Virus record (IMG/VR): IMGVR_UViG_3300042197_003333
Span: 16,246 to 80,245 of that record
Origin: a virus
Direction: 5' to 3' (one strand)
DNA length: 64,000 nucleotides
This document shows, in pieces, positions 28,132 to 48,473 of this stretch (the stretch's first letter is position 1; each line of letters starts with the position of its first letter). The position numbers and the translations under genes are program-made. The notes under the pieces were generated by a model. That model ran no database searches. It saw only the letters and a program-made list of their open reading frames with translations, and was not told the DNA's origin.

Positions 28132-28167
28132 AAAAGTTTTGTATATTTGCCCATAACTTTTAAACAA

Positions 28168-28980
28168 ATGAATAATTTAGATTTTTTCAAAACATTACTT
28201 TCAGTTCCTACGAAAACATATCAGGAAGATAAAATGATTGATTTTTTGGTTTCATATTTTGAATCAAAAAATTATGAGTTCTTTGTTGATGAACTTGGAA
28301 GTATATATGTTACAAAAGGAGTTGTAAAACCTGGTGAATACTTCCCCTGTGTTGTCGCTCACACCGATACGGTACATAAACTTGACACAATTAATGTGAT
28401 GGAAGAAACTCTTCCTAATTCAAAAGGTGAAGACTCACTATGTCTTAAAGCTTATAATGATTTTAATGAGCCAACGGGAATTGGTGGGGACGACAAATGT
28501 GGAATATTCGCTTGTCTTGAGCTTCTTGAAAAATTTGATGTTATAAAAGCGGCGTTTTTTGTTTCAGAAGAAGTCGGTTGTATTGGGTCAAATAATTCTG
28601 ATGATAGATTTTTTGATAATGTTGGTTATGTTATTGAATTTGATGCTCCTGGCGATTATTGGGTGACTGAATATTGTTTTGGAGTTAAACTTTATGACAG
28701 GGAGTCAGAGTTTTTCAAAATTTCAAATAACATTCTTTCTGAAAATTTGTTGTCAAAACCATCTTATGGTGTTCACCCTTATACTGATGTATATGCGCTG
28801 AAAAAGAAATATAATTTTGCTTGTATTAACTTTTCAATTGGGTACCATAACTATCATACCAAAAATGAGTATATCTGCATTGAAGAGGTTGAAGCGGGAA
28901 TTAAAGCGGGTGGTGAGTTAATTAAATCTTTGGGTAATGTTAAACACTTTTTTGACCACCCATCAAAAGTTAATCTATAA
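28168..28980 (+). CDS. Zn aminopeptidase-like hydrolase (M20/M28/M42 clan)
   Basis: VAHTDTV, GGDDKCG, SEEVG, YHNYHT. Confidence 0.85.
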   Translation: MNNLDFFKTLLSVPTKTYQEDKMIDFLVSYFESKNYEFFVDELGSIYVTKGVVKPGEYFPCVVAHTDTVHKLDTINVMEETLPNSKGEDSLCLKAYNDFNEPTGIGGDDKCGIFACLELLEKFDVIKAAFFVSEEVGCIGSNNSDDRFFDNVGYVIEFDAPGDYWVTEYCFGVKLYDRESEFFKISNNILSENLLSKPSYGVHPYTDVYALKKKYNFACINFSIGYHNYHTKNEYICIEEVEAGIKAGGELIKSLGNVKHFFDHPSKVNL

Positions 28981-28991
28981 AAAAAGGGGGA

Positions 28992-30245
28992 TTATTCCCC
29001 CTTTGTTTTTCTTGCCCTTTTTGTCTTCTTATATTCCGAGTAAAGCACTTTTTCATCTTCAATTCTCATAACGTAAAGTGTTTCTTCTTTAAGATTTTTT
29101 CTTAAAACTTCGTCGGAAATAAAATCTTCAATCTTTTCTTGAATTGCCCGTTTAAGCGGTCTTGCTCCATATACCTCATCAAACCCAACTTTTGAAATAA
29201 AGTCAATAACTGATTCATCAAAAGTAATATTAAGTTTCAACCCCTCAAGTCTTGACTGCAATTTGTTAATTTCAACTTTAACAATCTTTTTAACATCTTC
29301 ATCGTTTAATGTATTAAAAACAATTACCTCATCAATACGATTTATAAATTCGGGGGCAAAATGATTTTTTAATTCTTTATTCAACATTTGTTTTTTAACC
29401 TCTTGGTCAGCATATACGTTGTTTGTTTTGGAAAATCCAATCCCCGCTCCAAAATCTTGCATTTTTTTGACCCCAATATTTGATGTCATAATGATAAGAC
29501 AATTTTTAAAGTTAATTTTTCTTCCAAAACTATCTGTCATATAACCTTCATCCAAAAGTTGGAGGAGTGATGAAAAAATATCACGATGAGCCTTTTCAAC
29601 TTCATCAAAAAGAACAACCGAATATGGTTTTGTCTTAACCTGTTCTGTTAATTGACCCCCTTCTTCATATCCAACATAACCTGGAGGTGAACCAATCAAT
29701 CTTGAAACCGAGTGTTTTTCTTGAAATTCACTCATATCAACCCTAATTAAATTTTCTTCACTTCCAAATATCTGTTTTGCCAATTCTTTCGCTAAAAGAG
29801 TATTGTGAGATAAAATACCATTAGTATAATATCTTCTATTAGAACCTTCTTTTAATTCTAAATCAAACATAACTTCTTCGTACCCTAAATTAGTTATTGA
29901 TACAACTTCACATTCTTCTAATTTATCATCACCAAATACACATATTTTATCACCAACATTTAAATTCTTCACAAAAACTTCTTCCATATTGTCAATATAA
30001 AAAACAATATGATTATCGGCGCATTTGAGTTCTTTACCATCAGATAATTTAAGGTGATAAACCTCATAAGGTATTGTTTCATGTAATGCCTCAATATCAA
30101 CAAAACCGGTGTCGGTTAATATTTCATAATCTGATATTTTAGTTGTTTTAGTAAATTTTTTTAATGAATCTAATTCGTGTTTATCAAATAAAAAAACATT
30201 ATCTAATTTCTCAATTCGTTTTTGTATTTCTTCAATTCCATTCAT
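28992..30245 (-). CDS. clpC: ClpC fragment 3: C-intein 2 (aa 1-148) plus the remainder of NBD2
   Basis: ...YYTNGILSHN|TLLAKELA, RVDMSEF, RLIGSPPGYVGYEEGG, LFDEVEKAH, IGF loop, GARPLKR. Confidence 0.95.
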   Translation of the reverse strand: MNGIEEIQKRIEKLDNVFLFDKHELDSLKKFTKTTKISDYEILTDTGFVDIEALHETIPYEVYHLKLSDGKELKCADNHIVFYIDNMEEVFVKNLNVGDKICVFGDDKLEECEVVSITNLGYEEVMFDLELKEGSNRRYYTNGILSHNTLLAKELAKQIFGSEENLIRVDMSEFQEKHSVSRLIGSPPGYVGYEEGGQLTEQVKTKPYSVVLFDEVEKAHRDIFSSLLQLLDEGYMTDSFGRKINFKNCLIIMTSNIGVKKMQDFGAGIGFSKTNNVYADQEVKKQMLNKELKNHFAPEFINRIDEVIVFNTLNDEDVKKIVKVEINKLQSRLEGLKLNITFDESVIDFISKVGFDEVYGARPLKRAIQEKIEDFISDEVLRKNLKEETLYVMRIEDEKVLYSEYKKTKRARKTKGE

Positions 30246-30246
30246 A

Positions 30247-31467
30247 TCATTTGTTTTTTAAAAATTTTATACATTTATTTATTATCTCTTGCTTATTCCC
30301 CCACCTATATTCAGAGTCCCATATTACTAAAACTTCAAAACCACAATTTTTGGCCATGCATAATTTTAATTTATCCTTATCCCAAATTTCTTGTGCAGTT
30401 ATGTTTTGTTTAAATGGATTTGGGTAATCTGTTGATTTATATTTTGTTGGGTTTGCGTGAAATGAATCTCCATGAAACTCAATTATTTTTTTATTAATAG
30501 TGTCAGTAAAATCGTATAACCAAACTCCGCCATTTTCTTTTTCTAACTTGAATTCTTTATTATGTGTTGCAAAATAAATTTTATCTTTATCAACAATATC
30601 ATATTTTTCTAAAAGTTTATAAAATAAATCTTGTGAAATTTTAGAAAACCCAATAACCATACTACCATTTTTTATCAAAGAATTTAACCATTTATCCTGT
30701 CTTTCATTAAATCTTTTTTTACCTTGTTCTTCACCATATTTTTTTATACATTTTTCTAATGAAAAAGTTGATTGGTGTTTAGATACTTTTTCTTTTGCTT
30801 CTTCTTCAGATAATCCAGTTTTTGTCCAATATTTAATATTAGAAGGTATTAATCTTTTTTGGAAATCTACTTGTTTAGCCGATTTTTTTTGATTTTTAGA
30901 AATAATTTTTTTAGCCTCAAGTTCTGTTTTACCTTTATTAATCCAAAATTCAACTTTTGAAGGAGTTAAACAAATTTTATTTATTTCTTCTTCAGTATAT
31001 CCTTTTTCTATTAGCATTTTTTTAGATTTACCATGATGAGTTTTAACACATTTAGAAGATTTTTGCTGTTGTTTTGAAATTTCTTTAGTCGCTAATTCTT
31101 TTGGGTAACCTTTATTTATCCAATACTCTTCACATAAACGATTTCTTTTTTTAATTTCATAATTTCTGTTTTCTAATTCTTTTAAAGCTTCTTTTTCATC
31201 CCAACCACGCTCAATAAAATATTCTATTTTGCCCCATTTTTTAGTTTTAAAGCTATAATTTTTTACCAACCACCCTCTCATTAATGAATATGAAATAGTA
31301 CCATCTTGTTCTTCTAATTTATTCATCAAAGATTGCATTTCTTTTTTTATTTTTTCATTATTGTAACGTATGTTCTTATCTAATTTTAAAACATAATTTT
31401 TAAATGTTTCTAAATCTGGAAAAATTTCGTTTATTTCTTTAGTTCCTTTGTTTGTTTTTATTTTCAT
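30247..31467 (-). CDS. Putative homing endonuclease (Vsr/PD-(D/E)xK-like C-terminus) inside split intein 2
   Basis: YWxxKG.SEEEAK repeats; YDFTD..KKIIEFHGDSFHANP...VIWDSE. Confidence 0.8.
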   Translation of the reverse strand: MKIKTNKGTKEINEIFPDLETFKNYVLKLDKNIRYNNEKIKKEMQSLMNKLEEQDGTISYSLMRGWLVKNYSFKTKKWGKIEYFIERGWDEKEALKELENRNYEIKKRNRLCEEYWINKGYPKELATKEISKQQQKSSKCVKTHHGKSKKMLIEKGYTEEEINKICLTPSKVEFWINKGKTELEAKKIISKNQKKSAKQVDFQKRLIPSNIKYWTKTGLSEEEAKEKVSKHQSTFSLEKCIKKYGEEQGKKRFNERQDKWLNSLIKNGSMVIGFSKISQDLFYKLLEKYDIVDKDKIYFATHNKEFKLEKENGGVWLYDFTDTINKKIIEFHGDSFHANPTKYKSTDYPNPFKQNITAQEIWDKDKLKLCMAKNCGFEVLVIWDSEYRWGNKQEIINKCIKFLKNK

Positions 31468-31513
31468 AATATCTATTTTATAATAAATATCGTAAAGTTT
31501 AAAAAAGTTAGGA

Positions 31514-33025
31514 CTAATTGGTGTCGGTAATGATATTTTTTATTTTTATTGTCTTTATTTCACCAGTAAACTTGTTTCTAACTATAATTTCAGTATCTTC
31601 ACAAACACATTTTCCAACACCTGTTGAACCCAAAAATATGAATGAACCAATTGGTTTATTTGGGTCTTTAATACCCAACCTATTTCTTCTTATTGATTTT
31701 GATATTGTTGTGATTGCTTCAATTTGGCCTATAACTGATTTTGACAAATTATCTTCCATATTTATCAAATTTTCTGTATCATCAACTGATAATTTGGTAA
31801 CTGGAATTTTTGTCATTATTGAAACAACATCATAAACAAGTTCAATTGAAATGTCTCTTCTTTTTGTTAATAAATCTTGTTCAAATTTGGTTCTTTCAGC
31901 ATCTAATTGACTCAAAATCTTTTTTTCCCTGTCTCTTAATTGTGCTGCCATTTCATAATTTTGCCTTTTGACAACAAGTAATTTTTCTTCCCTAATTTTT
32001 TGTGATTCTTTCTTTAATTCCTCAATAATTTCGGGATTTTTAACATCAACTTGAGCTCTTGCTCCAACTTCGTCCAAAATATCAAAAGCCTTATCAGGAA
32101 ATTCTCTATCTGTTATATATCTGTCGGCCAAATCAACACATGCGTTTAAAATTTCATCTGTAAAATTAACCTTGTGATGAATTTCGTATTTTTCTTTCAA
32201 ATTTTGAAGAATTTGAAGAGTTTCTTCTTTTGTTGATGGTGAAACAATTACTTTTTGGAACCTCCTGTCAAGAGCCCCGTCTTTTTCAATATTTTTCTTA
32301 AATTCATCAAGTGTTGTTGCTCCAATGCACTGAATTTCACCTCTTGATAATGCGGGTTTTAGAATATTTGATGCGTCAAGTGAACCAGATGCGTTTCCAG
32401 CCCCAACAAGGGTATGAATTTCGTCAATAAAAAGAACTACATTTGGATTTACCGTAATTTCGTCAATTATAACCTTTAATCTTTCTTCAAATTGACCCCT
32501 ATATTTTGTTCCCGCAACAATTGAATTTAAATCAAGTGATAAAATTCTTTTGTCAACCAAATTTCTTGGGCAATCTCCTTGAAATATTTTCATTGCAAGA
32601 CCCTCAACTATCGCCGTCTTTCCGCAATTATGGGAAACAACTCCATTTGATATATATTTTCTTTCATCGTCTAAAACTTCTAAATCATAGGTATTATTAA
32701 TTCCTATTTCAGTATATTCTATAACATCAACCAATTCATTATTTTCAGTCCAAACAAATTCACCTTCTGTAATGTTACCTAAACTTAACCAACAAGAATT
32801 ATTTTCAAAAACAACATTTGGATTTAAAGAATTTTTAGAAACTTCAACCAAATGTTCGTCAGAACCTGATAATTCTAAACCATTTGATAGTTTAATTCTA
32901 ATACAATTTTTATTGTTTTTTTTGTATAAATTACCAATTAATTTATATCCTGATGGTGTTTTAATTTTGTAAGTCCCACCTTTTTTTTCAACAAGGTCAA
33001 AAAAATCTTCTATTTTTATTTTCAT
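31514..33025 (-). CDS. clpC: ClpC fragment 2: C-intein 1 (aa 1-133), NBD1/UVR/NBD2 start, N-intein 2 (aa 473-503)
   Basis: VVSHN|CGKTAIVEGLA, FIDEIH, GATT, PDKA, FLGSTGVGK|CVCEDT. Confidence 0.95.
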   Translation of the reverse strand: MKIKIEDFFDLVEKKGGTYKIKTPSGYKLIGNLYKKNNKNCIRIKLSNGLELSGSDEHLVEVSKNSLNPNVVFENNSCWLSLGNITEGEFVWTENNELVDVIEYTEIGINNTYDLEVLDDERKYISNGVVSHNCGKTAIVEGLAMKIFQGDCPRNLVDKRILSLDLNSIVAGTKYRGQFEERLKVIIDEITVNPNVVLFIDEIHTLVGAGNASGSLDASNILKPALSRGEIQCIGATTLDEFKKNIEKDGALDRRFQKVIVSPSTKEETLQILQNLKEKYEIHHKVNFTDEILNACVDLADRYITDREFPDKAFDILDEVGARAQVDVKNPEIIEELKKESQKIREEKLLVVKRQNYEMAAQLRDREKKILSQLDAERTKFEQDLLTKRRDISIELVYDVVSIMTKIPVTKLSVDDTENLINMEDNLSKSVIGQIEAITTISKSIRRNRLGIKDPNKPIGSFIFLGSTGVGKCVCEDTEIIVRNKFTGEIKTIKIKNIITDTN

Positions 33026-34194
33026 AATACATTTAATATTTTATCATATAGTTTAGTAAAATCTGTCTCATAAATCAATTTAATTTTGTTTTCATTACAA
33101 AATAAAATTTTTTTATTCATTTTATCGTAATATTTAGATTGTTTTTCGTCTAATTTGTTAAAATTTTTTCCGTCTAAAATACCAAAATATTCAATATACA
33201 CATCGTAATCAGGTAGATAAAAATCACATTTAAAATGCGAATTCGGGTACCCAATCTCATATGAATAATTAATTTTTTTAAATTCAAATAAAAGACAAAG
33301 TTTATATTCTTTAACGCTTTTAAATCTAATCCCATTATGATATACAGGGGTACCATATAAGCCACACTTTAACTCATAAGGAAATGATGAAAAAAAAGTT
33401 TTTTTAATTGTGTCTTTATTAGTATTGTACCTATTTGAAATGATTGAGCTATTAATGTAAGGGATAATATCTGAAATAGTTTTAACGTCTATTTTTGTTA
33501 AAACACACAAAACAAATTTTGAAATAGAATCACAATCAATACATTCTGTTATAATTTTTTTTGTACTATCTAAAAAAGATGTTCTTACTATTAAATCTTT
33601 TATTGGTACTTTATCAAAAGAATATGAGTTCTTTTTTTTATTAATTTCATTAATTTTATTATTTGTGTGAAGACTATTAATCCATTTTTTTTGTCTTTTT
33701 TGGAAAATTTCAACTCCTTCCTCTTCACCATATTTTTGAATACAAATTTTTTTGCTAAAAGTTTTTTGACTTTCAGAAATTAAATTTTTTGCCTCTTCAG
33801 AACTAAATCCTTTTTTTACCCAATATTCAATTCTTTTAGGGGATTTGTCATAAAATTTTTCAGGATTTATTTTCTTTTTGTCTGAAAGAATTTTAGAATT
33901 TTTTTTCTGTTGCTCACTAATAAATTGAGTTATTTCTGATTTTTCCCATCCCATCATAAATAAAAAGTCTTCATTATATACACTTTCAGGGTAATTAACT
34001 ATTTGTCTATACCACTTCTTAATTTCCTTAAAATTAATTTGAGTCGTATTTTTAATTTGATTATTAACTTTATCAATACAAGAGTCGGGTATTTTTTTAA
34101 AGAACTTAAAAAAATTATTATTTAAAATAAAATTTTCTAAATCAATATGATTTGATATAGTTAATAATTTTTTTCTTTTAAAGAAAACATTCAT
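33022..34194 (-). CDS. Putative homing endonuclease (PD-(D/E)xK-like) inside split intein 1
   Basis: YWVKKGFSSEEAK, CIQKYGEEEG, FKSVKE...CDFYLPDYDVYIEYFG. Confidence 0.8.
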   Translation of the reverse strand: MNVFFKRKKLLTISNHIDLENFILNNNFFKFFKKIPDSCIDKVNNQIKNTTQINFKEIKKWYRQIVNYPESVYNEDFLFMMGWEKSEITQFISEQQKKNSKILSDKKKINPEKFYDKSPKRIEYWVKKGFSSEEAKNLISESQKTFSKKICIQKYGEEEGVEIFQKRQKKWINSLHTNNKINEINKKKNSYSFDKVPIKDLIVRTSFLDSTKKIITECIDCDSISKFVLCVLTKIDVKTISDIIPYINSSIISNRYNTNKDTIKKTFFSSFPYELKCGLYGTPVYHNGIRFKSVKEYKLCLLFEFKKINYSYEIGYPNSHFKCDFYLPDYDVYIEYFGILDGKNFNKLDEKQSKYYDKMNKKILFCNENKIKLIYETDFTKLYDKILNVL

Positions 34195-34233
34195 AGTTAA
34201 TCAGGTTAAAGTAATTACCTTTACCTATAAATA

Positions 34234-34527
34234 TCAGATAGTTTCAATATTATGGGTATTTACAACTGAAATTTTTTCAACTTCAATAATAGTGTCCCCA
34301 AGTACGCAACCCGGCTCACCAATAATAATTGGGTTATTTTTTTTCCTTCTTGATAAAATTTGAGCGATTCTCAAAATTTCTTGTTCTCGTCCAACAACTG
34401 GGTCAAGTTTTCCTTCTTCTGCCAATTTAATTAAGTCCCTTGAAAAATTATCAAGTACAGGGGTTTGACCTTCTTGTGTTCTTTGGTTTCCACCACCTTT
34501 TTTTCCTTCGTCTGGAGTTTCTGTCAT
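34234..34527 (-). CDS. clpC: ClpC fragment 1: NBD1 start (aa 1-73) plus N-intein 1 (aa 74-97)
   Basis: [27 protein letters not shown]|CVLGDT. Confidence 0.95.
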
Positions 34528-41425: not shown

Positions 41426-44400
41426 TGGGTAATAGACAAAGAGGTAAATCAGGTAGAATTTTTGATGGCTCAAAATTGGTTGTAAATAATAACTGAATTA
41501 AAAACGTTAAAAAAGAATCAAAAGTCATTAAAAATTTGGACATTGGGGTTGGTTTTATTGAAACTCCTCCCCCAACCCCATCAATTACACCGACTAACAC
41601 CCCGACAATATCATTAACACCATCAAACACCCCTACTCCGTCAATTACGCCATCAAATACTCCTACCCCATCAATTACGCCTACAAACACTCCAACTAAT
41701 AGCGTTACGCCAACTAATACTCCAACAAATACACAGACCCCAACTAATACTAAAACACCAACACAAACAAGAACTCAAACACCAACAAATACACAGACCC
41801 CAACTAATACTAAAACACCAACACAAACAAGAACTCAAACACCAACAAATACACAGACCCCATCAATTACGCCGACTAGTACTAAAACACCAACACCTAC
41901 AAAGACCCAAACACCCACTAATACCGTAACTCCTTCGGAAACACCGACCAATACTCCAACAAGGACATTAACAAAAACTCCAACACAGACCCCGTCAATT
42001 ACCCCAACTAATACTCAAACTCCAACAAATACTAAAACTCCAACTCCAACAAGAACTGAAACTCCGACTAATACCCCAACAAACACACAAACTCCAACAA
42101 ATACTAAAACTCCAACGAATACTAAAACTCCAACCCCGACAAATACAACCACGCCATCAGAAACTCCAACTAACACTCCAACAAGAACATCCACAAAAAC
42201 ACCAACGCAGACTCCATCAATTACACCAACAAATACAACAACACCATCAGAAACTCCAACTAATACTCCAACAAGAACATCCACAAAAACCCCAACCCCT
42301 ACTTCAACTATAACTCCAACAAATACTAAAACTCCAACGAATACTAAAACTCCAACACAAACAAATACAAACACCCCATCAGAAACCCCAACCAATACCC
42401 CAACAAGAACATTAACAAAAACTCCAACAAATACCCCAACACAATCACCGCAATTTTCTCAATCACCGACTCAAACTCCAACAAAAACTCCAACTAATAC
42501 TGCCACAAATACCCCGACTAGTACCGTTACTCCAAGTAACACCACCACAAATACCCCAACTAATACTGCAACAAAAACCCCTACCACAACATCAACTCCT
42601 GCGGCTAGTGCTTCACCAACTTCAACTCAAACTCCAACAAATACCCCAACATCGTCTGTAACTCCAACAAATACAAAAACTCCTACTAATACACAAACTC
42701 CTACTAACACACAAACTCCAACTAGAACTTCAACTCCTACTAATACACAAACTCCTACTCAAACATCTACTAATACTCAAACTCCTACTAATACACAAAC
42801 TCCAACTAAAACTTCAACTCCAAGTCCAACTCAACCATCGTGTTTTTGTTATCAATTCCAAATTACTACTAATGGTACAACTGTTCAATCAACAAATTGT
42901 AATGGTAATATAACTCGGAGCGCATATTCAATTGGTTATTACTCAATTTGTTCTAGAGTTACACCGACATTTATTGGTGGTTCGTATTCAAATTTAATTC
43001 AAGCTGCAAGTTGTTTAAATGGAGGTGACGCCGCTTGTATCGCAGTGAGCCAATCACCGACTCCGACTCCGACAATTACCCCAACTAAAACACTTACCCC
43101 TACTCAAACTCCTACTAATACTCAAACTCCTACTAACACAATTACCCCTACCAACACCCAAACTCCAACAAATACTCAAACACCTACTAATACTCAAACT
43201 CCAACTCCTACTTCAACTCCTTTGGCAAGTCCTTCCCCAACCTCAACAGTTACTCCAACTAATAGTGTTACCCCAACTAATACTCCAACTAATACTCAAA
43301 CTCCAACACCAAGTATTACACCGACTAATACTCAAACTCCAACTAATACTCAAACCTCAACAAACACACCAACTAATACTGTAACACCAACAAACACGCC
43401 TACTAATACTCAAACCCCAACAAATACACAAACCCCAACAATTACGCCGACTAATACTATAACTCCAAGTATTACTCCTACTAATACTCAAACCCCAACA
43501 ATTACACCAACAGTAAGTCCAAGTAGTCCAGTCTTATTAGAATTTTTAAGTTTTCCGGCGTCAAGTGGGATTTCATTTTCATTTGGTAACTCAACACAGG
43601 TCAGACAAACAACTGTTGAACTAACAGACACTAATTCTGCCAGTACTATTTATAATTTTAATAATACAGGCGATACGACATTTGTGTCGTTAGGTAGTTC
43701 GGTGGCTAATTTTACCTATACACCCACTACCTCAAATGGAGAGCTATTACTCTTTAAAAATCCTGTAGGATTTATACATTCTTTTAAAACAAGTAGTGTT
43801 AGTACGTCTTTATTTATACAAGGTTTTTCGGCTATAACAAAAAATCAAAATTACGCACTTAAACAGAGTTATTTTGGAAAAACCCTTCTTACTATAAGTG
43901 GCTTCTCAGGCTCATTAAATTTACTTGATTATAATGGTTTTGAAGGCGCAAGGCTTTACATTTTTAATTATATTGCAACAGGAACAAATGCAAGTAATGC
44001 TGAATTATTAGATAATTCTTGGTTACCCAAAAATTATACGGCAAGTACTACCGCTCAACAATTTTATTTTAACGTTAGCGCGACTACAAGAGCCAGTGTA
44101 AATTTTAATTTGACTGGAATGACAAATTTATCGTATCTAGTAAATGACGATGTTAACCACGAAATAAATGGGGTAACTTCAATAACATTGGCGTTACCTC
44201 AAAATTTTGGTAGAACTACTACTTTTGGCCCGGTAAGTGCTGTTGACCCTGCAGCTGGAATTTTTATACGAACAACTAGTTCTAGTCCTAACCCTTTAAC
44301 CGCCGTCACAATAACAAACGGGCCGTCAGTTGTGTCCAATTTTAGTAAATTTCAATTAAGACTTATACCTAGTTTGGTTTCTCTAACAACAAGTTACCAA

Positions 44401-45516
44401 AGAAATTTGGCAATATATTCTTTGGAAAGAATGTCATCTTTAACTGCAGTAACCGACGATTTTAGTGTATATACTGGTTTAACTTATTTTAACATTACTA
44501 CTTGTCCTAATTTAAGTAATTTCACTGCGAATACTTTATCTGGATTATCTAATTTTCAACACTATTTGTTAAACGATTGTAAACAATTTAATTGGCCTAT
44601 ACTTCCCACTTTTAATCAAAACCCTTACAAATTACAATTAACAAATTGTCTTCTTACTTCACCTCCCCCATCATCGCCATTTTATTTTAAAACAAATCTT
44701 AAAGACATATATTTAGGAAATTTTGTTAGTACAAGCACAAATGAAATTGCTATACATTCAAATAAAAATGTAATTAATTTATGGGATTATAATCTTACGA
44801 GTTTGACAGGTTTGACTACGTTTAGTCTAAATCATTGTGAATTGACAGGAATTACAAATTCAAATATATTCCCGACACAAGTTAAGACCATTAATTTTAT
44901 ATCTAATCGTTTAAGTGGTTTATCTTTTTCACATTTTAGTTCGGTAACTGGATTCTCAATGAATATTTCAAATGGTAGTAGTGCAAATGATAGGAACACC
45001 ATTTCAGCGTTCACTGATTGTAATTCTGCGTCGGGACTAACAGCATTAACTTATACTAATGGTACTTTCCAACCAACTGGAGGATTTCAGCCATTTTTTC
45101 CTACGGGATTAACTTCATTAAATATTAGTAGTAGAGTAAATGGTAGAAATGCTACTCCATATGTAAATATTGTATTTTCATCAAACACTGTATATTCAGG
45201 ATTTAATAACTCTTTAAAAACTTTAAATATCAGTAATTTTTCTTTATCTGCCGCTAGTATGAATTACATAATTTGTTGGCTCGCAACGGCTCAAACGTAT
45301 AGCACATCAGTTACTGGAGGCACATTAAATGGGGGTAATGAATTTATATCATCAACTACTAATCCTACTGGTAACGCCAAAATAGACACAACTTCAGGTG
45401 GATTAAATGGAATTGTCTGTAGAGATATTTTAACAGGTACTGTAGGTAATACAATAACAGTTAACACTATTCCTTACCCAGGTAAAGGTTGGACTGTAAC
45501 AGGTACTTTTGCTTAA
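41425..45516 (+). CDS. Thr/Pro-repeat virion protein with C-terminal LRR-like region (in-frame TGA at 41494; track start is TTG 41536)
   Basis: About 650 aa of TPT/TPS repeats; ATG at 41425 is in the same frame and overlaps the terminase stop. Confidence 0.75.
41563..43530 (+). repeat. Coding Thr/Pro tandem repeats
   Basis: Imperfect ACN-CCN-ACN repeats, including an exact 60-nt duplication near 41722-41861. Confidence 0.9.
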
Positions 45517-45575: not shown

Positions 45576-48473
45576 ATGATGGAAAATAATAAAATGACAG
45601 TATGGCAAAGATTGTCCCAAGCTTTTGGTCCAAATTCATTGCTCGGACAAGATTATCCAACATACAAATACGATAAAAAAGAACTTTTAAGGACAACATC
45701 CAAAAAAGAATATGACCTTGAAAAACTTCAAGCTCAACAAAATTACTATCTTGCAAACCAATGGTCAAAGATTGAACACAATCTTTATACCCAAGCAGTG
45801 TATTACGAACCAACAAGATTATCATCTTTTTATGACCTAGAAAGTATGGAGTTTACTCCAGAAATATCTGCAGCTTTAGATATTTACGCCGAAGAATCAA
45901 CGACAGTAAACGAAGATGGTTATATGCTTCAAATTTATTCTGAATCAAAAAGAATAAAATCAATTTTGGCTGACTTATTTAACAACGCTCTTGATATTAA
46001 CACAAACCTTCCGATGTGGACAAGAAACACATGCAAGTATGGTGATAATTTCGTTTATTTAAAACTTGACCCCGAAAAAGGTATAGTTGGATGTATGCAA
46101 CTTCCAATTATTGAAATTGAAAGATTGGAAGCGGGAATGGGAGGAAAATCTGCCGACCCTGAAACAAACCCAACAAAAAAACATACAAGATTTAAATGGA
46201 AACAAAAGGACTTGGAGTTCAATACTTGGGAAGTTGCTCACTTTAGATTACTTGGTGATGATAGGAGACTACCGTATGGAACTTGCCTAAAATTTGATAC
46301 TAAAATTGATACTGAATATGGAGTTAAAGAAATTAAAGATATTGTAAAAGGGGATAAAGTTTATTCATTTGATTTAAATTCAGAAGAAAAAGTATTGTCT
46401 GATGTTTTAGATACTGTAAATTCAGGAGTTAAAATTTGTTACCAAATACATACTAAACATAATTTTATTGAAGCTTCAGAAGAACACAAAATATTAATTT
46501 TTGATGGAAATAAATTTACATATAAAAATACATTAGAATTAAATATTGGTGATTTATTAGTTATTGACAATTCAAAAAATAAAACTAAAAAAACTTTGAT
46601 TAATAAAACACAACCTGAAGATAATAAAAACGGATGGTTTAATAGTGTTGATTTAATACCTGAATATATAAATGAAGAATTTGCTAGATTTTTTGGATTT
46701 ATGTTAGGTGATGGCTGGATTAGTAATAATGGTGTTTATTTTGCATTATCTGAATATGATGATTTAAATGATTTTTATATTGGGATATTAAACAAATATT
46801 CCAAAAATCCAGTAAAAATTATTGAGGTTGATGGCAAAGAAACACAATGCATGGTGTGGTCAAAGTGTTTAAAGACAATTTTAGAAAGAATGGGTTTTAA
46901 TGGTAAGGCCTCAACTAAAAGATTACCTAGTTGGATATACAGCTCGGATGTAGAAATACAAAAGGCTCTTTTAGAGGGACTAATAGACTCAGACGGATGG
47001 ATAACACAAGATAAATGGTCAACACATCTTAATATTGAATTATGTAATGAAAATTTAGTAAAAGACGTTAAAACTTTATGCCAAAAGATTGGATATAAAT
47101 CAGGTTCAATTAGAAAAAGAGAACCAAGAAAAAATGTGGTAATTGAAGGTAGAAAAATTAAATCGGTAAAACCAAGTTATTCTTTGACTTTTTATGATAC
47201 CTTATTAACTCAAACGAAAAAATATGACAACCAATTTAGAAAAAATGAAAATTACATTTTAGAACCAATTACAAAAATTATTGACATTGGAGAACATGAA
47301 ACTTTTGATATATACGTTGAAAATCAAAATCATAATTTTTACGCTAATGGAGTCGTTGTACATAATTCAATGTTAGAAAAAGCTCGTCGTATTTGGAAAC
47401 AATTATTATTATCCGAAGACGCAATGTTAATTTATAGAACATCAAGAGCTCCTGAAAGAAGAGTATTTAAAGTATTTGTTGGAAATATGGATGACGCAGA
47501 TGTTGAACCTTATATCCAAAGATTTGCAAATAAATTTAAACGAGACCAAGTTGTTGACTCTAAATCAGGAAATGTTGATATGAGGTTTAATCAAATGGCG
47601 GTTGACCAAGATTATTTTGTTCCCGTTAGAGACCCAGCTCAAGCTTCCCCAATTGAAACATTAGCAGGTGCCACAAACCTATCGGAAATCGCGGATATTG
47701 AATATATTCAAAAGAAATTGCTCACCGCAATTCGTGTTCCAAAAGCGTTTTTAGGTTTTGAAGAAACCGTAGGAGATGGAAAAAATTTGGCATTACAAGA
47801 TATAAGATTTGCAAGAACAATCAATCGTATTCAAAAAACGATGGTTCAAGAACTTAATAAAATTGCAATTATTCACCTTTTTATTTTAGGTTTTGAAGAA
47901 GAAATTGGAAACTTTACATTATCCTTAACAAATCCATCAACTCAAGCGGATTTAATGAGAATTGATGTATGGAAAGAAAAAGTTTTATTATTTAAAGATA
48001 TGGTTGCAGACCCTGGAAGTGGAATTGCCCCTGTATCACAATCTTGGGCAAAGAAACACATTTTGGGATTTTCTGATGATGAAATTAAACTTGATTTGCA
48101 ACAACAACGAATTGAACGAGCTGTTGGTGAAGAGTTAAAGAAAACTGCTGAAGTTATTACTCATTCAGGAATATTTGACAATATTGATAGATTATATGGC
48201 AAAAAAGAAAGTGAGCCAGCTGGAACACCAACTGAAGGTGGAGCCCCACCACCGGGAGGAGATATGGGAGCGGAATCATCACTCCCCGCACCTCCACCAC
48301 CAGGTCCTGAGCCAGGCGGCGAAGCGGGAGTAACCCCCGAACAATATGAAAGAGACATGAATATTCTTGTTGAGAGTAATCTTATAGAGGACGATGAGAT
48401 GATTGATTTATCAAAAGCAAAAAAATCTTTGTCTGAAATTGAAGATAAATTAAAATCATTACTAAAAGATTGA
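45576..48473 (+). CDS. Portal protein (T4 gp20-like) with intein
   Basis: ISAALDIYAEE, CKYGD, HFRL, EDAMLIYRTSRAPERRVF, DIRFARTINRIQ. Confidence 0.95.
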   Translation: MMENNKMTVWQRLSQAFGPNSLLGQDYPTYKYDKKELLRTTSKKEYDLEKLQAQQNYYLANQWSKIEHNLYTQAVYYEPTRLSSFYDLESMEFTPEISAALDIYAEESTTVNEDGYMLQIYSESKRIKSILADLFNNALDINTNLPMWTRNTCKYGDNFVYLKLDPEKGIVGCMQLPIIEIERLEAGMGGKSADPETNPTKKHTRFKWKQKDLEFNTWEVAHFRLLGDDRRLPYGTCLKFDTKIDTEYGVKEIKDIVKGDKVYSFDLNSEEKVLSDVLDTVNSGVKICYQIHTKHNFIEASEEHKILIFDGNKFTYKNTLELNIGDLLVIDNSKNKTKKTLINKTQPEDNKNGWFNSVDLIPEYINEEFARFFGFMLGDGWISNNGVYFALSEYDDLNDFYIGILNKYSKNPVKIIEVDGKETQCMVWSKCLKTILERMGFNGKASTKRLPSWIYSSDVEIQKALLEGLIDSDGWITQDKWSTHLNIELCNENLVKDVKTLCQKIGYKSGSIRKREPRKNVVIEGRKIKSVKPSYSLTFYDTLLTQTKKYDNQFRKNENYILEPITKIIDIGEHETFDIYVENQNHNFYANGVVVHNSMLEKARRIWKQLLLSEDAMLIYRTSRAPERRVFKVFVGNMDDADVEPYIQRFANKFKRDQVVDSKSGNVDMRFNQMAVDQDYFVPVRDPAQASPIETLAGATNLSEIADIEYIQKKLLTAIRVPKAFLGFEETVGDGKNLALQDIRFARTINRIQKTMVQELNKIAIIHLFILGFEEEIGNFTLSLTNPSTQADLMRIDVWKEKVLLFKDMVADPGSGIAPVSQSWAKKHILGFSDDEIKLDLQQQRIERAVGEELKKTAEVITHSGIFDNIDRLYGKKESEPAGTPTEGGAPPPGGDMGAESSLPAPPPPGPEPGGEAGVTPEQYERDMNILVESNLIEDDEMIDLSKAKKSLSEIEDKLKSLLKD
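46284..47366 (+). mobile_element. Contiguous LAGLIDADG intein in portal (aa 237-597)
   Basis: PYGT|CLKFDT...FFGFMLGDG...LEGLIDSDG...VVHN|SMLEK. Confidence 0.95.

Follow-up and report, generated by a model that had tools for sequence, protein, structure and literature searches.

A freshwater phage clpC gene in three pieces, with a candidate trans-splicing intein at each ATP-binding loop

Introduction

How could a working AAA+ unfoldase be made from a gene that is broken within both of its ATP-binding loops? This question is raised by a locus found in a 64-kb stretch of viral DNA (hereafter, the window), which is part of the 80-kb IMG/VR virus record IMGVR_UViG_3300042197_003333. On the minus strand of the window, between positions 34527 and 28992, the coding sequence of a ClpC-type protein is distributed over three open reading frames (ORFs), and each break falls inside a Walker A motif and is bordered by sequences resembling the two halves of an intein. 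The window also contains phage genes for the large terminase, portal and major head proteins, and the sequencing runs that contain it are freshwater metagenomes. CheckV rates the 80-kb record as 27% complete, which suggests that the source genome measures a few hundred kb.

We propose that, in a large tailed phage from freshwater, two mobile elements entered the gene of a clpC-type AAA+ unfoldase with a double ring, one at each P-loop. Both would be mini-inteins, and within each of them, approximately 24-31 codons from the start of the intein, would lie a free-standing endonuclease gene of the Vsr / I-Bth0305I type. The resulting split would be of the kind known as atypical, with a short N-terminal intein half (IntN) that comprises block A only and a long C-terminal half (IntC) that contains blocks B, F and G. 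The five ORFs would be co-transcribed, with the start of each downstream ClpC piece overlapping or nearly touching the stop of the preceding endonuclease gene. Three polypeptides would be made from the ClpC pieces, namely ExtN-IntN1, IntC1-ExtM-IntN2 and IntC2-ExtC, in which ExtN, ExtM and ExtC denote the successive ClpC segments (exteins). IntN1 would pair with IntC1 and IntN2 with IntC2, and two class-1 protein trans-splicing reactions (Cys1/Cys+1 and Cys1/Thr+1) would excise the inteins, yielding a ClpC of 681 amino acids (aa) with restored Walker A motifs GEPGCGKT and GSTGVGKT. The endonucleases would drive homing. We infer from the sequence, with a probability of approximately 0.8, that two trans-splicing reactions link the three products to give a functional ClpC.

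Results

A clpC gene interrupted at both Walker A motifs

The five ORFs are co-oriented and follow each other in the order ExtN-IntN1, endonuclease 1, IntC1-ExtM-IntN2, endonuclease 2 and IntC2-ExtC. Fragment 1 (34527-34234, minus strand; 97 aa) contains 73 extein residues (ExtN, 34309-34527) ending in IIIGEPG, the first half of the Walker A motif of the first AAA+ module (D1), followed by Cys plus 23 residues (IntN1, 34237-34308; 24 aa) and a TGA stop (34234-34236). Fragment 2 (33025-31514, minus strand; 503 aa) starts with a 133-aa Hint C-half that ends in SHN (IntC1, 32627-33025). It continues with 339 extein residues running from CGKT to GSTGVGK (ExtM, 31610-32626), which complete D1, span the middle region and end with the first half of the Walker A motif of the second module (D2), and closes with Cys plus 30 residues (IntN2, 31517-31609; 31 aa) and a TAG stop (31514-31516). 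Fragment 3 (30245-28992, minus strand; 417 aa) is composed of a 148-aa Hint C-half, again with a terminal SHN (IntC2, 29802-30245), and 269 extein residues from TLLAK onward (ExtC, 28995-29801), which supply what remains of D2 together with the D2-small domain; a TAA stop follows at 28992-28994. The three extein lengths (73 + 339 + 269) add up to 681 aa.

Between these fragments lie two free-standing genes, also on the minus strand, for endonuclease 1 (33022-34194; 390 aa) and endonuclease 2 (30247-31467; 406 aa). Spacers of 39 and 46 nucleotides (nt) separate the stops of IntN1 and IntN2 from endonuclease genes 1 and 2, respectively. The TGA of endonuclease 1 overlaps the ATG of fragment 2 (ATGA), and that of endonuclease 2 ends 1 nt before the ATG of fragment 3. 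The stop of fragment 3 lies within an intrinsic-terminator-like hairpin region on the minus strand (28983-29004; 9 bp, of which 5 are G-C pairs, followed by a T-run); nothing comparable was present on that strand between the ClpC pieces. Because this hairpin is the sole strong minus-strand terminator of the locus, the five ORFs probably form one transcription unit and are co-transcribed.

The pieces could be assigned to ClpC with several profiles. PHROG 4871 ('ATP-dependent protease') was matched by the three pieces consecutively, at profile positions 163-224, 224-510 and 510-753 (E value 1.5e-16 for ExtN). In Pfam, ExtM matched AAA and AAA_lid_9, and ExtC matched AAA_2 (E 4e-58) and ClpB_D2-small (E 7e-23); two AAA+ modules, each with a Walker A motif, and a D2-small domain are thus spread over the pieces. 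The AAA_2 match in fragment 3 begins at profile position 16, and tblastn alignment with phage ClpC covered exactly residues 134-473 of fragment 2. Both Walker A motifs are whole only once the pieces are joined. No Clp_N repeat domain was detected in ExtN, in which approximately 50 residues without a Pfam match precede D1. ExtC carries a GAGIGFS loop (IGF at residue 269 of fragment 3) that, from its position as judged by eye, is a candidate for the ClpP-docking IGF/IGL loop.

Scanning IMG/VR with the middle fragment yielded 32 relatives, all of which were intein-free. In each of them the counterparts of ExtN, ExtM and ExtC adjoin to the base, without gap or overlap, and ExtN aligns to residues 1-73 of the uninterrupted protein. 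The closest relative, L004, has exteins that are 94-96% identical to those of the window and encodes ClpC in a single 681-aa ORF, flanked by the same neighbours (277, 82 and 239 aa) as clpC of the window. The sole difference between L004 and the window at this locus is the presence of two insertions, of 1682 and 1808 nt. A preliminary description of the locus, made before these comparisons, had given fragment boundaries, intein-half and extein lengths and a total of 681 aa, and all of these figures held on recheck. The ClpC with restored Walker A motifs that it deduced agrees in length with the uninterrupted ORF of L004, and its exteins are colinear with the intein-free alleles; the comparison with clpC of related phages that it had suggested is provided by the abutting exteins of these alleles.

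Intein-free alleles also shed light on the insertion sites. In close relatives (L004-L030), the D1 Walker A motif reads GEPG-C-GKT or, in some of them, GEPG-S-GKT, and distant relatives have the usual Val or Ile at this position. Because intein-free close relatives already have Cys or Ser there, a splice-competent +1 residue is fixed in the clade, and the +1 nucleophile of intein 1 is native to it; this residue may have been needed before the intein could invade, or it may be left over from earlier invasions. At the +1 position of intein 2, the Thr is the one found universally in Walker A motifs.

Reality of the breaks

Such a fragmented gene could be an artefact, i.e., the result of an assembly or sequencing error, of an alternative genetic code, or of misreading two cis-splicing inteins with in-frame endonuclease domains. 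TAG is seldom used as a stop in the long frames of the window (1 of 42), and endonuclease 1 and fragment 1 share a reading frame, as an artefact of this kind might have it. However, several different in-frame stops follow each IntN (TGA, TAG and TGA after IntN1; TAG, TAA and TAA after IntN2, with the first TAA only two codons on), and the remaining pieces are in different frames. Given these multiple stops and frame differences, reassignment of a single stop codon or a single indel would join nothing. Stop-codon reassignment was ruled out by the multiple different in-frame stops behind each IntN.

The preliminary description had named assembly errors at the stops as something that would overturn it, and these were examined with Logan contigs. 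Most of the breaks are spanned, with 0-2 differences, by contigs from runs of other studies (X2, X4 and X6). Coverage of the IntN1 stop together with the endonuclease 1 start comes from X2 and X4, of the stop of endonuclease 1 with the start of fragment 2 from X4, and of the stop of endonuclease 2 with the start of fragment 3 from X2. X6 covers IntN2 with its stop and ends at the start codon of endonuclease 2, a junction that is spanned by X1 alone. X1 tiles the whole stretch with zero differences; it is probably the source sample and was not counted as independent. Considering also that the same layout occurs in dozens of independent loci (see below), we regard the probability of an artefact as negligible.

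Identity, motifs and selection of the intein halves

Both IntC halves are related to known split inteins. IntC2 matched CatC of the consensus atypical intein Cat (PDB 6dsl_B, E 4.6e-7), gp41-1 (E 1e-4) and Pfam Intein_splicing (E 8.9e-8). IntC1 matched gp41-1 (6qaz, E 0.0022), VidaL (6vgv, E 0.0023) and CatC (E 0.15), and its alignment with VidaL starts at residue 25 of the fused 6vgv structure. In NCBIfam, IntC1 aligned with positions 16-81 of the 83 positions of the intein N-terminal model (intein_Nterm) and scored above the cut-off of the C-terminal model (intein_Cterm). With this coverage of the N-terminal model and the match to the C-terminal one, IntC1 corresponds to an intein that lacks block A only, and the missing block is evidently supplied by the 24-aa IntN1.

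The two inteins of the window are clearly distinct from each other. They are approximately 30% identical in IntC and share 10 of 24 residues in IntN, their insertion positions are not equivalent (GEPG-C in D1 and GVGK-T in D2), and they are split into IntN/IntC halves of 24/133 and 31/148 aa, which reside on separate polypeptides. IntN1 is 91% identical to its counterpart in locus L036, and the IntN2 tail is kept in 15 protein clusters and in loci L040-L060. Both IntN1 and IntN2 have Cys1, which is conserved throughout the homologous tails. Residues H58, D114, S131, H132, N133 and C134 (IntC1 and its +1 residue) are invariant in 32 homologues of fragment 2. When 23 IntC sequences are considered along with these homologues, Cys1, the block B His, the block F Asp, the terminal SHN and the +1 residue are all invariant. 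Within the TxxH motif of block B, the invariant His is H58 of IntC1 and corresponds to the H105 column in the alignment of the 23 sequences. The motifs of blocks F and G read YDLEV...SHN-C in intein 1 and FDLEL...SHN-T in intein 2.

Ratios of nonsynonymous to synonymous substitution rates (dN/dS, Nei-Gojobori), calculated against the window, were 0.10-0.22 for IntC2, 0.08-0.18 for IntN2 and 0.23-0.27 for IntC1; for IntN1, one comparison gave 0.04 and the other was saturated. Values for endonuclease 2 (0.18-0.22) and ExtM (0.05-0.21) were in the same low range. These ratios indicate that the intein halves are under purifying selection.

It is conceivable that these halves no longer splice and instead act as association domains that hold the three ClpC polypeptides together non-covalently. 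Precedent for this is the fragmented NrdA of Aeromonas phage Aeh1, whose fragments are reportedly held together by domains derived from a mobile element (PMC3045599), and the replacement of the block B Thr in both inteins would fit a loss of splicing. On the other hand, all class-1 splicing residues are kept and are invariant across diverged homologues. Moreover, if the inteins stayed in place, each Walker A loop would hold an insertion of approximately 155-180 aa, separating G from GKT in one loop and K from T in the other; judging from the intein-free alleles, it is the loop without interruption that is functional. A purely non-covalent assembly is thus very unlikely.

These data also bear on the possibility that clpC is a casualty, killed by the two endonuclease cassettes, and that its pieces are decaying pseudogene fragments. 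The closest relatives do have an intact gene, and endonuclease genes are decaying in several loci (L053-L055, L060 and L039). Nevertheless, all three pieces have kept open frames and start codons, exteins and intein halves are under purifying selection (dN/dS 0.04-0.27), and the three-piece layout is retained in 15 clusters down to 67% identity. Decay of the gene is highly improbable in view of these observations.

Allele series and mobility

Using the IntC halves as queries in IMG/VR, we identified 25 further loci, which were dissected by tblastn and in-frame translation. One of these, L046, contains intein 2 at the same GVGK-T site as an uninterrupted 173-aa mini-intein, in which a 26-aa IntN-like part runs into an IntC-like part. 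An AlphaFold2 (AF2) model of this intein (predicted local distance difference test, pLDDT, 79) had VidaL as its top PDB match (E 1.3e-8, template modelling (TM) score 0.81). There were 59 PDB matches with E <=0.001; the top 47 listed were all inteins, and two bacterial intein-like (BIL) domains ranked lower. These matches assign a HINT fold to the modelled intein.

Split forms of the inteins varied in what separates the halves. At the point where the two parts of the L046 intein meet, intein 2 is split with a full endonuclease gene in L040-L042, L045, L048-L052, L056 and L059, whereas in L053-L055 and L060 the endonuclease gene is reduced to its last 108 codons, and in L038 the halves are separated by a 177-nt stop-filled gap without an endonuclease gene. 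Intein 1 is split by TAA, 6 nt and ATG alone in L036 and L037. The three-piece gene of L039 has the same two inteins as the window and has lost the site-1 endonuclease. L044 and L057 are also three-piece genes, with intein-2-type inteins at GK-T in both D1 and D2; their ClpC has a longer N-terminus, with first pieces of 272-275 aa. These two loci (L044 3977-6001 and L057 3666-10552) belong to a more distant phage group, and both of their P-loops are split at the equivalent GK-T position. The second gap of L044 contains a 313-aa ORF with cytosine-methyltransferase-like motifs (PCQ and ENV) as well as a 113-aa endonuclease remnant.

Signs of mobility were found for intein 2. In a contig of run X4, positions 29801 and 31610 are contiguous; this is exactly the empty site of intein 2 and implies that filled and empty alleles share a habitat. 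A joint from 29798 to 31614 in X1, with 7 other letters between, derives from a more diverged relative. IntC2 of L038 is 91% identical to that of the window while the adjoining ExtM is 71% identical; conversely, ExtM of L004 is 95% identical to that of the window, yet L004 has no intein. An element able to move from one allele to another would be expected to leave such a contrast.

Endonucleases

Neither endonuclease had a match in Pfam or NCBIfam, and single-sequence searches of PDB gave chance-level matches only. Homologues were available for both proteins: endonuclease 1 has 21 homologues of 388-401 aa, and endonuclease 2 matched PHROG 22677 (E 2.5e-26). A profile built from 14 homologues of endonuclease 2 matched only Vsr in PDB (1vsr, 1odg and 1cw0), with a weak E of 0.16, across the catalytic motifs; the aligned Vsr motifs were PDF, hGxFWH and GWxVLvvWE. 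The corresponding profile of endonuclease 1 gave chance-level PDB matches and T7 endonuclease I at E 0.57. When an AF2 model of endonuclease 1 was used (pLDDT 85), the best fold match was the catalytic domain of I-Bth0305I (3r3p; probability 0.99, a weak E of 0.22, TM 0.62), with Vsr below it. A central module of approximately 100 aa is common to both endonucleases (hhalign 99.4%), and their N-terminal and central DNA-binding parts had no match in Pfam, NCBIfam or PDB. Most likely, both are putative members of the Vsr-like homing endonuclease family, whose initial description came from fractured genes (PMC2677866; PMC3239194).

Pairing and orthogonality of the two inteins

We predicted the complex of IntC1 plus 12 extein residues with the last 40 residues of fragment 1 (IntN1 plus 16 extein residues). 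Its ipSAE score was 0.75, compared to 0.28 for the best control; 58 of 80 solved complexes and 2 of 110 mismatched pairs reach this mark. Runs agreed in at least 82% of contacts, with a partner pLDDT of at least 53. In the predicted complex, IntN1 residues 1-13 lie against the first two strands of IntC1, beside blocks B, F and G. Because complexes of Cat and VidaL have already been solved, this prediction shows likeness to known inteins and is not proof of binding. Charges of the halves are opposed: IntN1 (net -3) faces a charge of +6 in the first 40 residues of IntC1, and IntN2 has a basic core and IntC2 a net charge of -14. These patterns are a plausible basis of orthogonality.

The opposite possibility, that the inteins cross-react deliberately, was also considered. 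In this case, the phage would form, beside full ClpC, a circular middle piece, an ExtN-ExtC product without most of D1, or both, and these would have functions of their own. The geometry of the middle piece is that used for artificial cyclisation, the IntN halves are alike in their first residues, and the inteins that share a gene in L044 and L057 are 55-66% identical to each other, which makes cross-reaction a sharper question there than in the window. However, the IntC halves of the window are only 30% identical, mismatched pairs would repel each other owing to their opposite charge patterns, and an ExtN-ExtC product would join half of the D1 P-loop to the D2 core. A programmed cross-reaction is very unlikely, and separate pairing, leading to a single full-length ClpC, remains the preferred interpretation.

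Occurrence in metagenomes

A search of a collection of 5.8 billion proteins revealed 135 proteins homologous to IntC1. Among 120 listed homologues, 102 were approximately 730-750 aa long and consisted of IntC1 plus an unbroken remainder of ClpC, i.e., these genes are split at site 1 only. The IntC1-ExtM-IntN2 layout was found in 15 protein clusters of 499-505 aa with conserved IntN2 tails, at identities down to 67%. For IntC2, 746 related clusters (50% identity; E <=0.001) were detected, and in most of the 150 clusters listed the intein ends at approximately residue 110-125, as expected for an N-terminal IntC. Based on these clusters, short-N split inteins are abundant, rather than rare, in environmental phages.

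Several metagenomic large-terminase pieces (P0128, P0131, P0140, P0141, P0159, P0206 and P0215) have an IntC start of the IntC2 family and an IntN-like tail, suggesting that terminase genes may also occur in three or more pieces. In P0131, P0141 and P0215, the two inteins are only 6-7 extein residues apart (CLIIDE, CVMVDE or CVFIDE), followed by Cys1 of the next IntN.

Other features of the window

The 277-aa ORF that adjoins clpC (28147-28980, plus strand) occupies the same position in L004. Upstream of it in window coordinates is a 479-aa ORF (25164-26603, plus strand) that matches PHROGs for M23-type metallo-endopeptidase and endolysin. The portal protein gene (PHROG 213, E 1.4e-57; ORF 45576-48473) contains a contiguous 361-aa intein (46284-47366, plus strand) that extends from Cys1 (GT-CLKFDTKI) to VVVHN-S and has two LAGLIDADG-like motifs (LGDGW and IDSDGW). 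This is the third intein of the same phage and is of the conventional type. Between the terminase and portal genes is a 1326-aa ORF (41536-45516, plus strand) with a GC skew of -0.56, the first approximately 900 residues of which are nearly all Thr/Pro-rich repeats (TPTNTQ...).

Discussion

In this study, we analyzed a phage locus in which clpC is divided among three ORFs by two split inteins. The preliminary description had already recognized two atypically split inteins at both Walker A loops, and this assignment gains support from the colinearity of the exteins, the kinship with CatC and VidaL, the contiguous form in L046, the selection acting on the halves and the predicted complex of IntN1 with IntC1, which scored better than its controls. 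Its three-piece reading was confirmed in anatomy and is supported in interpretation. The arrangement is no one-off and recurs in many metagenomic contigs.

Several observations weigh against trans-splicing of the three pieces into ClpC. The block B Thr is replaced by Ser in intein 1 (SDEH) and by Ala in intein 2 (ADNH), of which Ser also occurs in the active gp41-1 and Cat inteins. The IntN halves have a common CV..DT.I.V start, which includes part of their 10 identical residues, and the middle piece has an IntC-extein-IntN layout, so that cyclisation or skipping of a fragment would compete with correct joining if the inteins cross-react. A contiguous form of intein 1 was not found among the loci, and the endonuclease assignments have weak scores (E 0.16 and 0.22). 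Finally, no spliced product, junction peptide or RNA was seen, and among public runs no RNA run containing the window is listed.

If both ATP-binding loops are completed only after two orthogonal, thiol-dependent trans-splicings, the two-intein layout might even serve as a two-key switch, an idea that we consider doubtful. Should it be true, ClpC activity would be delayed or gated during infection by fragment stoichiometry, redox state or temperature, and the native +1 Cys or Ser of intein-free alleles, in place of Val, would be a lasting imprint of it. The locus would then also be a source of two short-N split inteins that are orthogonal by nature, with hundreds of related ones besides.

The three-piece ClpC layout is a recurrent, selected state and not a singleton. 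Within one gene family, the alleles include empty sites, a contiguous intein, inteins split with an endonuclease gene, with a decayed one or without one, and single as well as double occupancy. Such a set offers material for studying how inteins are split by free-standing endonucleases and how the homing cycle proceeds. In addition, the family has at least 746 clusters at 50% identity, among them pairs that occur next to each other in a single protein; such pairs are candidate tools for orthogonal tandem ligation.

Known atypical split inteins (AceL-TerL, GOS-TerL, VidaL and Cat; PDB 6DSL and 6VGV) resemble those described here in that IntN, 25-37 aa there and 24 and 31 aa here, comprises block A only, and the long IntC contains blocks B, F and G. 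They are of environmental phage origin and belong to class 1 with Cys1 (PMC11766414). Natural examples have been reported from terminase genes and from a small number of other phage genes; they are regarded as rare and are valued for peptide ligation (PMC11766414). The candidate split inteins of the window differ from them in their host, ClpC instead of terminase, UvsX or T4 helicase, in the length of IntC (133 and 148 aa versus approximately 104-115 aa) and in that two of them occur in one gene.

The organization of the locus is similar to that of fractured genes (Dassa, London, Stoddard, Schueler-Furman & Pietrokovski 2009, PMC2677866). In both cases, an extein-IntN gene, a spacer, a free-standing endonuclease gene and an IntC-extein gene follow each other on the same strand and in this order in a phage context, and the spacers are of comparable length (39 and 46 nt here, 27-51 nt in fractured genes). 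Endonucleases of fractured genes belong to the GIY-YIG or Vsr-like family; those of the window may be Vsr-like, in keeping with their weak matches. The catalytic fold predicted for endonuclease 1 resembles, with weak scores, the I-Bth0305I / Vsr-like 'EDxHD' homing endonucleases (PMC3239194). Fractured genes, however, consist of two pieces and have the canonical split at the endonuclease domain (N-half of approximately 100 aa and C-half of 40 aa), whereas the locus in the window has three pieces and splits located 24-31 residues from the intein N-terminus. The hosts listed in that study do not include ClpC (0 occurrences in PMC2677866).

A 2023 preprint states that the inteins discovered to date are encoded in either one gene or two genes. 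Our literature search for an intein in ClpC, or for a natural gene that needs two split inteins, returned nothing relevant, which is weak evidence given that much of the intein literature lies outside the search. As far as the searches show, a natural protein that needs two trans-splicings across three polypeptides has not been described. Its components, i.e., P-loop inteins, fractured genes and short-N split inteins, are known already.

The combination itself has a parallel in protein engineering. Shi and Muir reportedly engineered tandem trans-splicing with orthogonal split inteins in 2005. In engineered three-segment labelling (PMC12707363), three polypeptides and two split inteins are used, with a middle piece that carries IntC at its N-terminus and IntN at its C-terminus, as in fragment 2 of the window. 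Those tandem systems are man-made, whereas the locus described here is natural and has been kept by selection.

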